Below, piece after piece: positions 2,392 to 4,387 of a DNA stretch of 4,387 bases. A program made the position numbers and the translations under genes. The notes below the pieces were generated by a model. That model saw nothing but the letters and a program-made list of their open reading frames with translations, ran no database searches and was not told the DNA's origin. Source of the DNA: a virus (Duplodnaviria; Heunggongvirae; Uroviricota; Caudoviricetes); the IMG/VR virus record IMGVR_UViG_2698536307_000013, one strand, 5' to 3'. How positions within the stretch are numbered: the stretch's first letter is position 1; every line of letters begins with the position of its first letter.

Positions 2392-2969
2392 ACACGGCAG
2401 CGGAAGCCATCCGTGCCCTGTCGATGCAGATGCCGGGCTTTCGCCGTCAGATGAACGAAGGCTGGTACCAGATACGTATTCGCGGTGAGGACACGGCACC
2501 GGAGGCGGTGTACGCCCGTCTTCACGAACCTCTGGGTGAGGGGGCGGTCATCCATATTGTGCCGCGACTGGTCGGAGCCGGAAAGGGCGGACTGCAGATT
2601 GTGCTGGGGGCGGCGGCCATCGTGGGGTCGTTCTTCACGGCCGGGGCATCAATGGCGTTATGGGGTTCAGCCCTGGCAGCCGGTGGTTTTTCTGCCACCA
2701 CGATGCTGTTTTCACTGGGGGCTAGCATGATACTGGGCGGTGTGGCCCAGATGCTGGCACCGAAGGCAAAAACACCGGATTACCGCGCAACGGATAACGG
2801 TAAACAGAACACGTATTTTTCCTCACTGGACAATATGATTGCCCAGGGTAACCCGATGCCGGTGCCTTATGGTGAAATGCTGGTTGGTTCACGACGGATA
2901 TCCCAGGACATCAGTACCCGTGATGAAGGCGGTGGCGGAAAGGTTGTGGTTATCGGGCGGCAGGGGTAA
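2289..2969 (+). CDS. I: Tail tip assembly protein I (lambda gpI homolog), 226 aa; N-terminal ubiquitin-like region and a Gly/Ala-rich hydrophobic central segment
   Basis: Similarity to lambda gpI as recalled (ARICL.GDLQRFGRR, AVIHIVPR, KQNTYFSSLDNM.AQGN, VVVIGR). GGGAGAGG Shine-Dalgarno at 2270-2277. Overlaps the K 3' end by 103 nt in a different frame, as in lambda. Confidence 0.9.
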   Translation: MATTNAFCLASPPLARICLHGDLQRFGRRLSLYVNTAAEAIRALSMQMPGFRRQMNEGWYQIRIRGEDTAPEAVYARLHEPLGEGAVIHIVPRLVGAGKGGLQIVLGAAAIVGSFFTAGASMALWGSALAAGGFSATTMLFSLGASMILGGVAQMLAPKAKTPDYRATDNGKQNTYFSSLDNMIAQGNPMPVPYGEMLVGSRRISQDISTRDEGGGGKVVVIGRQG

Positions 2970-2984
2970 AAAGAATAAAACAAT

Positions 2985-3000
2985 CCCGCAGAGTTGCGGG
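2985..3000. other. Short GC-rich hairpin (CCCGCA-GAGT-TGCGGG) 16 nt after the I stop; possible RNA 3' stability element, or a terminator on the minus strand where it is followed by a T-rich run
   Basis: Perfect 6-bp inverted repeat with a 4-nt loop. On the + strand no T-tract follows. The reverse complement is followed by ATTGTTTTATTCTTTTT. Confidence 0.3.
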
Positions 3001-3032
3001 GACAGACAAAGATTAACGTTAAGGAGTTATTT

Positions 3033-3137
3033 TTGTTTCTGGTGCTCGGGCAAAAAAACATTAACGCAGAGAAATTATTAGCACCACAGTCAGTTTGTGA
3101 AAATGTGAAGATATTCAGAAGTTTTATTCCGTCATGA
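3033..3137 (+). CDS. Hypothetical 34-aa mini-ORF (MFLVLGQKNINAEKLLAPQSVCENVKIFRSFIPS) in the I-J spacer; speculative
   Basis: Consensus Shine-Dalgarno AAGGAG (3021-3026) lies 6 nt upstream of TTG at 3033. The ORF stops at TGA 3135-3137, immediately before an intrinsic terminator. The segment is AT-rich compared with its flanks. No homology is recognised. Confidence 0.15.
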   Translation: MFLVLGQKNINAEKLLAPQSVCENVKIFRSFIPS

Positions 3138-3139
3138 TG

Positions 3140-3169
3140 CAGGCATCCTCCGGGATGCCTGTTGTTTTT
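3140..3169 (+). terminator. Rho-independent (intrinsic) terminator-like hairpin with T-tract in the I-J intergenic region
   Basis: Stem CAGGCATCC (3140-3148) pairs with GGATGCCTG (3153-3161) around loop TCCG, followed by TTGTTTTT (3162-3169). Perfect 9-bp GC-rich stem. Confidence 0.6.
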
Positions 3170-3203
3170 GTGCGTAACAGTTATCACAGTAAAGGGTGAG
3201 ACA

Positions 3204-4387
3204 ATGGGCAAAGGTGGCGGCAAGGCGCACACACCGCGCGAGGCGAAGGACAATCTCAAATCCACGCAGATGATGAGTGTGATTGATGCGATTGGTGAGG
3301 GACCGATAGAAGGCCCGGTGAAGGGGCTGCAGAGTATCCTGGTGAACAAAACCCCGCTGACGGACACGGACGGCAATCCTGTGATACACGGTGTGACCGC
3401 GGTCTGGCGCGCCGGGGAGCAGGAGCAGACACCACCGGAAGGCTTTGAGTCCTCCGGAGCTGAAACCGGACTGGGCGTGGAAGTGACGAAGGCAAAGCCG
3501 GTAACGCGCACCATTACGTCCGCGAACATTGACCGCCTGCGGGTTACCTTCGGGGTGCAGTCACTGGTGGAGACCACCTCAAAGGGTGACCGTAACCCGA
3601 CGTCTGTCCGCCTGCTGATTCAGCTTGAGCGTGGTGGTAAATGGATGACGGAAAAGGATGTCACCATTAACGGCAAGACCACCTCACAGTACCTGGCGTC
3701 GGTGATTCTGGATAATCTGCCTCCCCGTCCTTTTAACATCCGGATGGTCCGGGAGACAGCGGACAGCACCACGGACCAGTTGCAGAATAAGACGCTCTGG
3801 TCGTCATACACCGAAATCATCGATGTGAAACAGTGCTACCCGAACACGGCGATTGTGGGGCTGCAGGTGGATGCGGAGCAGTTTGGCGGTCAGCAGATGA
3901 CGGTGAACTACCATATCCGCGGTCGCATCATCCAGGTACCGTCAAACTATGACCCGGAAAAACGCACTTACAGCGGCATCTGGGACGGCAGCCTGAAACC
4001 GGCATACAGCAACAACCCTGCCTGGTGCCTGTGGGACATGCTGACTCACCCGCGCTACGGCATGGGAAAACGTCTGGGGGCGGCGGATGTGGACAAGTGG
4101 GCGCTGTATGCCATCGGGCAGTACTGCGACCAGATGGTGCCGGATGGCTTCGGGGGCACCGAGCCGCGGATGACCTTCAATGCGTACCTGGCACAACAGC
4201 GTAAGGCGTGGGATGTTCTCAGTGATTTCTGCTCGGCGATGCGCTGTATGCCGGTATGGAACGGTCAGACGCTGACGTTCGTTCAGGACCGCCCGTCGGA
4301 TGTGGTGTGGCCGTACACCAACAGCGATGTGGTGGTGGATGATAACGGCGTGGGGTTTCGCTACAGCTTCAGCGCCCTGAAGGACCG
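3204..4387 (+). CDS. J: Host specificity / central tail fiber protein J (lambda gpJ homolog), N-terminal 394 codons; 3' end lies beyond the window
   Basis: Open frame from ATG 3204 to the window end with no stop. The N-terminus MGKGGGKAHTPREAKDNLKSTQ and long stretches (TTSKGDRNP, NKTLWSSYTEIIDVKQCYPNTA, AWCLWDMLTHPRYGMGKRLGAADVDKWALY, FCSAMRCMPVWNGQTLTFVQDRPSD) match lambda gpJ as recalled. Shine-Dalgarno-like AAGGGTGAG precedes the ATG. Confidence 0.93.
   Translation, partial: MGKGGGKAHTPREAKDNLKSTQMMSVIDAIGEGPIEGPVKGLQSILVNKTPLTDTDGNPVIHGVTAVWRAGEQEQTPPEGFESSGAETGLGVEVTKAKPVTRTITSANIDRLRVTFGVQSLVETTSKGDRNPTSVRLLIQLERGGKWMTEKDVTINGKTTSQYLASVILDNLPPRPFNIRMVRETADSTTDQLQNKTLWSSYTEIIDVKQCYPNTAIVGLQVDAEQFGGQQMTVNYHIRGRIIQVPSNYDPEKRTYSGIWDGSLKPAYSNNPAWCLWDMLTHPRYGMGKRLGAADVDKWALYAIGQYCDQMVPDGFGGTEPRMTFNAYLAQQRKAWDVLSDFCSAMRCMPVWNGQTLTFVQDRPSDVVWPYTNSDVVVDDNGVGFRYSFSALKD

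Follow-up and report, generated by a model that had tools for sequence, protein, structure and literature searches.

Organization of the I–J gap

The DNA analyzed here, called the window throughout, is a stretch of 4,387 nucleotides from IMG/VR virus record IMGVR_UViG_2698536307_000013 (Caudoviricetes). The window is a lambdoid tail-tip module that reads, from left to right, a truncated L', the 3' end of the tape-measure gene, M, L, K, I, an intergenic gap, and J. Our subject is the gap between I and J. A preliminary description, made from the letters of the window alone, had noted an AT-rich spacer of 234 bp at this point, and the figures agree: the gap occupies positions 2970–3203 (234 bp), with a G+C fraction of 0.37–0.46 vs 0.52–0.67 across the flanking tail genes. 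The I–J gap of phage lambda, which that description had given as roughly 60 bp, is indeed 60 bp long (I ends at 15444 and J starts at 15505 in NC_001416). We read the gap in the window as a cassette of about 150 bp that carries, on the minus strand, a small RNA (sRNA) gene of the PasB/EcOnc22–24 family, together with a sense-strand terminator placed before J, and we put the probability of this reading at roughly 80%. Homology, synteny, the conserved signals, and the lack of conservation of a small open reading frame (ORF) were established in the present analysis, while expression, size, and dependence on Hfq come from papers on the homologues. Expression of the window allele, its targets, control by CRP, and the role of the terminator are inferred. 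The features of the gap are listed here.

2977..3067, minus strand: predicted sRNA gene of the PasB/EcOnc22 family, about 76–91 nt, located by synteny and alignment with the gap of E2348/69 prophage PP6, by blastn, and by the alignment of 19 distinct alleles
3067 or about 3052, minus strand: two candidate 5' ends of the sRNA, the first 7 nt downstream of the -10 hexamer, the second homologous to the coverage-based 5' end of PasB
around 2977, minus strand: predicted 3' end of the sRNA, in the U-run
2985..3000, minus strand: predicted terminator stem-loop of the sRNA, CCCGCA-ACUC-UGCGGG, from a terminator scan
2984..2970, minus strand: U-rich tail of the sRNA, AUUGUUUUAUUCUUU, directly after the terminator stem
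3009..3026, minus strand: candidate seed region, single-stranded, chosen on conservation and unpaired or variably paired in folds
3016..3009, minus strand: UUAAUCUU, the best-conserved stretch of the candidate seed region
3026..3021, minus strand: CUCCUU, the complement of AAGGAG
3074..3101, minus strand: sigma-70-type promoter-like site, with -35-like TTCACA (3101..3096), a 16-nt spacer, and -10 AATAAT (3079..3074)
3104..3119, unstranded: CRP-like box TGTGA-N6-TCAGA, here TGTGA-AGATAT-TCAGA, with its center about 44.5 nt upstream of the start predicted for the sRNA
3033..3137, plus strand: TTG-initiated mini-ORF of 34 codons (TTG at 3033–3035, stop at 3135–3137), present as a string and judged not to be a gene
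3139..3172, plus strand: sense intrinsic-terminator candidate, with a 10-pair stem and 4-nt loop at 3139–3162, then TGTTTTTGTG

A predicted antisense sRNA gene of the PasB family

Followed in the direction of transcription on the minus strand, the CRP-like box (3119..3104) is succeeded by the promoter-like hexamers (3101..3074), the RNA, its terminator (3000..2985), and the U-tail. The promoter scan gave 10 of 12 consensus matches for the hexamers, a score that reflects consensus match alone. At the other end, the terminator scan found CCCGCA-ACTC-TGCGGG as DNA at 3000..2985, followed by ATTGTTTTATTCTTT. This terminator, a 6-pair stem with a tetraloop left after a short deletion, still forms a stable hairpin (-10.9 kcal/mol, z = -3.6; the E2348/69 counterpart folds at -12.6).

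The closest documented RNA is PasB of the enteropathogenic Escherichia coli (EPEC) strain E2348/69. PasB is an 83-nt RNA encoded on the minus strand of prophage PP6, from 1466343 to 1466261 (Pearl Mizrahi et al. 2021, PMC8550237, Table S6), with E2348C_1436 and E2348C_1437 on either side; a Northern blot confirmed it, and Hfq is needed for its stability. In the ranking by number of interactions in RIL-seq (RNA interaction detected through ligation and sequencing), it stands 15th; another table appears to give 37 for PasB, and its level is higher in overnight lysogeny broth (LB) than in Dulbecco's modified Eagle medium (DMEM) (PMC8550237). According to RefSeq and the annotation file of the same paper, E2348C_1436 is I (ending at 1466255) and E2348C_1437 is J (starting at 1466496), so that PasB comes from an I–J gap, and this gap aligns with that of the window end to end. 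The Northern probe for PasB equals the tail-sense strand; consequently, the RNA that was detected is antisense to the tail genes.

The predicted sRNA of the window shares with PasB the I–J slot, a 3' end within about 10 nt of the I stop, an antisense orientation to the tail genes, and a place upstream of J, as well as the position of the -10 hexamer, the TGTGA-N6-TCAGA block, the core of the terminator stem, and the UUAAUCUU stretch. A blastn comparison of the 83-nt PasB with the window gave 47 of 58 identities on the minus strand (E = 6e-12). The two differ in that identity is only about 81–86% (85.6% to the E2348/69 allele over aligned columns); the window allele has gained 6 nt at one point and lost 4 nt at another, and 9 nt are missing from its terminator loop; moreover, E2348/69 has TATAAT as its -10 where the window has AATAAT, and the U-run of the window is broken by a G. 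At the level of sequence, then, the predicted window sRNA is a divergent allele of the PasB family. A recent preprint (Zhu, Shabalina and Storz 2026, 10.64898/2026.05.13.724894) placed the proposed seed of PasB just upstream of the terminator and surveyed genomes with a word size of 28 and a 75% query-coverage filter. When the 83-nt PasB was compared with the window by megablast with a 28-nt word, no match was found; therefore, such a survey would miss the window allele.

A second set of homologues was found in Sakai, an enterohemorrhagic E. coli (EHEC) strain. EcOnc22, EcOnc23, and EcOnc24 are peaks from Hfq cross-linking and analysis of cDNA (Hfq-CRAC) in prophages Sp15, Sp14, and Sp11 (Tree et al. 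2014, PMC4104026, Table S2). They are listed there as mutual homologues, run at about 85 nt on Northern blots, and are destabilized without hfq (PMC4104026). The gap of the window is homologous to the I–J gaps of these same three prophages, and on the current Sakai record, the coordinates of EcOnc22–24 fall in those gaps, on the strand opposite the tail genes. Since the published coordinates refer to an older version of the genome, we calibrated the shift to NC_002695.2 on three identical copies of HnrS (EcOnc10–12), whose 66-nt position is fixed by its promoter, its terminator, and its published complementarity to mazF. Shifts of +132 to +143 keep all three HnrS peaks inside the RNA, and with a shift of +137, the EcOnc22–24 peaks correspond to positions ~14–76 of a predicted 92-nt PasB-like RNA. 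With uncorrected coordinates, the peaks had seemed to be antisense to the sense hairpin before J, and this placement was dropped after the calibration. More generally, coordinates in Table S2 of that study lie about 132–143 nt below NC_002695.2 in the 1.78–2.23 Mb region, and remapping of its peaks needs this correction (as for the Sp9, Sp12, and Sp10 copies).

Like EcOnc22–24, the window would encode an RNA of about 85 nt that is bound by Hfq and lies antisense in the I–J gap, and it has the terminator core and the AACGUUAAUCUU stretch in common with them. It differs in having 81.9% identity to the Sp15 allele over aligned columns, with 27 gap columns, and another 5' part and -35 region. On the basis of sequence, synteny, and the calibrated shift, PasB and EcOnc22–24 appear to form one syntenic family with several alleles. 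PasA and PasD are assigned EHEC homologues in Table S6 of PMC8550237 and PasB is not, and "EcOnc" is unmentioned in the preprint (10.64898/2026.05.13.724894).

HnrS itself is an EHEC prophage sRNA present in several copies and equipped with an anti-ribosome-site seed. As the identity of the window RNA it was rejected, because it maps between Rz and terminase and its sequence differs. HnrS, AgvB, and AsxR resemble the window element as short, Hfq-dependent sRNAs with intrinsic terminators that are expressed in lysogens and exist in multiple prophage copies, but they belong to other loci and have other sequences; HnrS, for example, has the Rz endopeptidase gene on one side and the terminase genes on the other. 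In the window, no match was obtained with the Rfam models for AgvB and AsxR, nor from a scan of its whole length against Rfam 15 at E <= 1.

Conservation across I–J gaps

To place the window among its relatives, we extracted the I–J gaps from 80 IMG/VR loci that encode close relatives of I and aligned 41 distinct gaps, reference prophages included. These gaps span 234–344 bp, and none of the 41 has the 60-bp lambda form. In the comparison of I–J junctions that the preliminary description had proposed, the segment is an insertion relative to lambda (234 vs 60 bp). From I towards J, the gaps run in the order minus-strand terminator, RNA body, -10, -35 region, an invariant block, the sense hairpin with its T-run, and the ribosome site of J. 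We read the right ~80 bp of the window gap as the ancestral I–J junction and the left ~150 bp as an antisense insertion; the equivalence of the right part to the lambda junction is positional and structural, and sequence similarity to lambda is weak.

The signals that frame the RNA are kept much better than the RNA itself. The minus-strand terminator, the -10 hexamer, and the TGTGA-N6-TCAGA box are present in all 41 distinct gaps. Each terminator has an invariant A-run and CCCGCAG...CTGCGGG with variable loops, and the CCCGCAG/CUGCGGG stem was seen in 19 of 19 aligned alleles. The -10 is TATAAT, AATAAT, or TATCAT at a fixed position in all gap variants, and the -35-like hexamer is variable. 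The invariant block, AAATGTGAAGAnnTTCAGAA, has TGTGA-N6-TCAGA as its core. The RNA body, on the other hand, falls into several allelic types that are 65–95% identical to the window and differ by many indels; within it, conservation is concentrated in UUAAUCUU and, for most alleles, in CUCC. A variable, mostly unstructured 5' half joined to a conserved terminator and U-tail is the pattern expected of an Hfq-dependent base-pairing RNA. Taken together, the cassette in the window is, by homology, the counterpart of an expressed, Hfq-dependent sRNA gene, with its predicted promoter and terminator intact and the slot and orientation shared.

An alternative is that the gap is a decaying remnant without current function, conserved through recent divergence and through module exchange by recombination. 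The window allele itself offers some grounds for this, with its weaker -10, its shortened terminator, and a rearranged L'-M-L region nearby; the closest O157 relatives (Sp9, EDL933) are in tail modules with large deletions, and the covariation statistics are weak. Against this, allelic types whose RNA bodies diverge by 15–35% and by many indels retain the -10, the upstream box, and both terminators. In two pathotypes, the homologues are produced in abundance and depend on Hfq, and the deletion in the terminator of the window still leaves a stable hairpin. We consider a functionless remnant quite unlikely.

A mini-ORF that is not conserved

The preliminary description had drawn attention to a Shine-Dalgarno-led mini-ORF on the plus strand. 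As strings, both elements are present: AAGGAG lies at 3021–3026, with a 6-nt spacing to the TTG that opens the 34 codons of 3033–3137. If these were used, the plus strand would encode a small protein, a moron-like cargo of the late operon translated from the AAGGAG site. The good spacing between ribosome site and start favors this possibility, as do a few GenBank phage records that annotate a plus-strand hypothetical protein in the gap (PhiR12_1, with 32 aa, and phage 1720a-02).

As a gene, however, the mini-ORF is not supported by its conservation. The aligned start codon is TTG in 17 of the 41 distinct gaps and TTA, TTT, or TTC, which are not starts, in the other 24. The Shine-Dalgarno hexamer occurs in seven forms (AAGGAG, AAGGAA, AGGGAG, AGGGGG, ATGGAG, AGATAA, and AGAGAG). 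ORF length varies from 7 to 89 codons overall (8–89 in the 17 gaps with TTG) as a result of indels that are not multiples of three, changes in the length of an A-run, and premature stops, and only three other variants retain the frame and stop found in the window. For example, the mini-ORF is stopped after 13 codons in E2348/69, the strain where the antisense RNA is documented. The conserved C-terminal end of the "peptide" overlaps the conserved promoter block of the antisense RNA, and a promoter scan found no plus-strand promoter-like site in 2700–3500. We therefore hold a small protein to be very improbable and regard the hypothetical-protein calls in PhiR12_1 and 1720a-02, which correspond to the nonconserved mini-ORF, as over-annotation.

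The AAGGAG string is the complement of CUCCUU in the antisense RNA, and CUCCUU, being ribosome-site-like in its complement, could pair with the ribosome sites of mRNAs. For annotation purposes, the gap would be better served by labels for an antisense sRNA gene and for a sense terminator than by one for a hypothetical small protein.

A candidate sense-strand terminator before J

A strong hairpin with a T-tract about 35 nt before J had also been pointed out, along with the need to fold it. The distance from the end of the T-run to the ATG of J is 33 nt, and in a 45-nt context, the hairpin folds at -19.6 kcal/mol (z = -3.9), with none of 200 shuffles folding as well. Across 10 distinct variants, 98% of its cells are paired, with one exchange of U:A for C:G. 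There is good reason from sequence and folding to treat 3139–3172 as a conserved intrinsic-terminator candidate.

Hairpins at the same place, with different sequences, were found in other gaps. A second class of gap, 338–344 bp long and called the 343-nt class here, occurs among the IMG/VR loci; it keeps the antisense cassette and has the window-type sense terminator replaced. The replacement is about 130 bp that carry a much stronger sense hairpin, AAAACCCCGGTATC...GATACCGGGGTTTCTCTTT (-29.9 kcal/mol), plus further unexplained sequence before J. The lambda gap has the hairpin AAACCGCC-TGCG-GGCGGTTTTGTCATTT at 15469–15494; a T-run goes with it, and the J start follows about 25 nt later. A simple terminator scan did not flag this lambda hairpin, though its folding is strong (-19.9 kcal/mol in a 49-nt context). 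The hairpins of the 343-nt class and of lambda are predicted to be functional equivalents of the one in the window.

In the lambda late operon, Q-antiterminated transcription reads through terminators. Likewise, Q-modified late transcription would be expected to pass through the sense hairpin of the window, and the most likely role of the hairpin would be to keep stray transcription that is not antiterminated out of J and the cargo genes downstream. The earlier suggestion that expression of J needs antiterminated read-through at this point is a reasonable one on this analysis.

The sense hairpin also raises the possibility of an sRNA on the plus strand, ending at the 3139–3172 terminator and arising either by processing of the I message at its 3' end in the lytic phase or by transcription from an unrecognized promoter within the conserved block; the antisense RNA would then be secondary, and the two are compatible. 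A conserved hairpin followed by a U-run is the typical 3' module of Hfq-dependent sRNAs, the block just upstream (3101–3135) is the most conserved part of the gap, and the 343-nt gap class likewise ends in a strong sense hairpin. This has to be set against the lack of plus-strand promoter-like sites mentioned above and against the presence of a hairpin in lambda without the upstream block. Furthermore, no sense-strand RNA from the gap is found in the Hfq-CRAC table (PMC4104026) or among the RIL-seq entries listed (PMC8550237), where the table of novel sRNAs gives only the antisense PasB for this gap, and the tail genes are near-silent in the E2348/69 lysogen (base means of 2–15; PMC8550237). 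An sRNA from the sense strand thus seems unlikely. Where the preliminary description had offered a small RNA as one of its options, an sRNA-type cassette is upheld by homology, but the RNA documented in related prophages (PasB, EcOnc22–24) lies on the opposite strand.

Predicted regulation and action of the sRNA

The box upstream of the sRNA promoter resembles a binding site for CRP. It matches 13 of the 16 specified bases of the 22-mer CRP consensus, where 0.01 such matches would be expected per window, and 9 of 10 bases in the half-sites. Both half-sites are identical in all 41 distinct gaps, with a variable central N6. A canonical class II CRP site is centered at -41.5. We rejected this geometry for the box, whose center lies at about -44.5 if the RNA starts 7 nt after the -10. 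Control of the sRNA promoter by CRP is a tentative proposal from the sequence, possible but somewhat doubtful. As the box is invariant and common to all alleles, it provides a testable idea about when the RNA is made.

By homology with PasB and EcOnc22–24, the window sRNA would be produced in the lysogen, at a time when the tail operon is silent, and it would be bound and stabilized by Hfq through its U-tail. It may then act in trans, pairing with mRNAs through the single-stranded A/U-rich stretch upstream of the terminator (CUCCUU, UUAAUCUU). The RNA body differs from those of PasB and EcOnc22, and for this reason, the set of targets probably differs as well. Several divergent body alleles, missed by a strict BLAST survey, would imply different target sets for each prophage.

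Several observations weigh against the PasB-type cassette with its adjoining sense terminator. RNAalifold on 19 alleles supports the terminator stem alone, with invariant pairs and no covariation for the sRNA structure. The 5' fold is inconsistent between alleles, with no common 5' hairpin in per-allele folds. The window allele has AATAAT as its -10, which is weaker than TATAAT, along with a shortened terminator and one G interrupting the U-run; consequently, its output could be lower. The copy in Sakai Sp9, which is 98.5% identical to the window gap, is absent from the Hfq-CRAC orphan peaks of Tree et al. (PMC4104026). For the sense hairpin, the single compensatory change is not significant (52 of 500 shuffles). 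With respect to CRP, the distance from box to -10 is 24 nt vs the 21 expected for class II geometry, and the sole physiological hint is the higher level of PasB in overnight LB than in DMEM, for which other explanations are possible.

A moron-like cassette and a possible cargo slot

The idea that the spacer is a small inserted, moron-like cassette has held up well. The segment is absent from the lambda junction (60 vs 234 bp), has a lower G+C content, and carries its own predicted promoter and terminator on the minus strand. Lambdoid morons, extra genes that bring a promoter and terminator along and are added between the conserved genes of a phage (the antisense sodC of Sakai Sp10 is one), resemble it in their insertion at a gene boundary, a G+C content below that of the neighbors, a predicted promoter and terminator of their own, and expected expression in the lysogen. 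The difference is that the cargo in the window would be a noncoding RNA antisense to the operon and not a protein gene.

The type of element is already known, from EcOnc22–24 in 2014 and PasB in 2021; that EHEC and EPEC prophages carry Hfq-dependent sRNAs is firmly established, and the current understanding is not overturned. The unity of PasB with EcOnc22–24, the diversity of alleles, and the CRP-like box are modest points beyond PMC8550237, PMC4104026, and the preprint.

A different cargo is found in Sakai Sp10, whose I–J gap (NC_002695.2 1963484–1964334) measures 851 bp and contains the Cu/Zn superoxide dismutase gene sodC (ECs_1989) in antisense orientation. The sodC cassette occupies the place where the sRNA promoter, the CRP-like box, and the sense terminator would otherwise lie, and a PasB-like body and terminator remain downstream of sodC. 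Given this insertion, the I–J junction behaves as an antisense cargo slot. A broader version of this view may be put forward as speculation and is, in our judgment, rather unlikely. The I–J junction of Escherichia lambdoid prophages in general would be an antisense cargo slot in which a conserved promoter module with the CRP-like box and a conserved terminator frame an exchangeable sRNA body. At least five or six allelic types of this body would have arisen by diversification, with displacement by sodC, as in Sp10, as the other outcome, and each prophage copy would add a differently targeted Hfq sRNA, possibly under catabolite control, to the network of the host. The RNA may also act in cis on J. 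The sRNA is perfectly complementary to the late I–J message, and during induction, it might affect the host-specificity protein J together with the sense terminator.

Distribution and neighboring genes

The gap sequence is present in 1121 of 5426 complete E. coli genomes, in up to 7 places per genome, and in 147 phage records, mostly of Shiga toxin (Stx)-converting phages. The conserved block, scanned for in one genome per species, turned up in E. albertii and, beyond that, only in three very small contigs that belong to unrelated assemblies, an outcome that agrees with the reported restriction to Escherichia and Shigella. The three contigs (460–3408 bp, in Asaia, Parendozoicomonas, and Streptomyces assemblies) are 81–98% identical to the tail genes and gap of the window and are most likely contamination by E. 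coli prophage.

The nearest full-length relatives of the window are prophages of bovine and human E. coli, at ~96% identity, and one IMG/VR contig has an I gene and a gap both identical to those of the window. The O157 copies nearest to the gap, in Sakai Sp9 and EDL933 (98.5–98.7%), have mid-L fused to the last codons of I, with K and most of L and I deleted.

The genes around the gap are as follows.

27 to ~527: truncated L', followed by the 3' end of the tape-measure gene
598–939: M
939–1637: L
between L and I: K, a C40 peptidase
2289–2969: I, with a TAA stop at 2967–2969
2970–3203: I–J gap, 234 bp
from 3204 (ATG): J, with its ribosome-binding region, GGGTGAG, and ATG at 3194–3206 on the plus strand, as read from the sequence

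The N-terminus of J agrees with that of J in relatives. At the left end of the window, positions 1 to ~527 are repeated at 913 to ~1440 with 96% identity and a spacing of 912. At ~527, the truncated L' runs into the final ~78 bp of the tape-measure gene, after which M and a full L follow. The repeat has the look of a tandem duplication that has diverged, or of unequal exchange involving two prophages, and does not resemble an assembly collapse of identical repeats.

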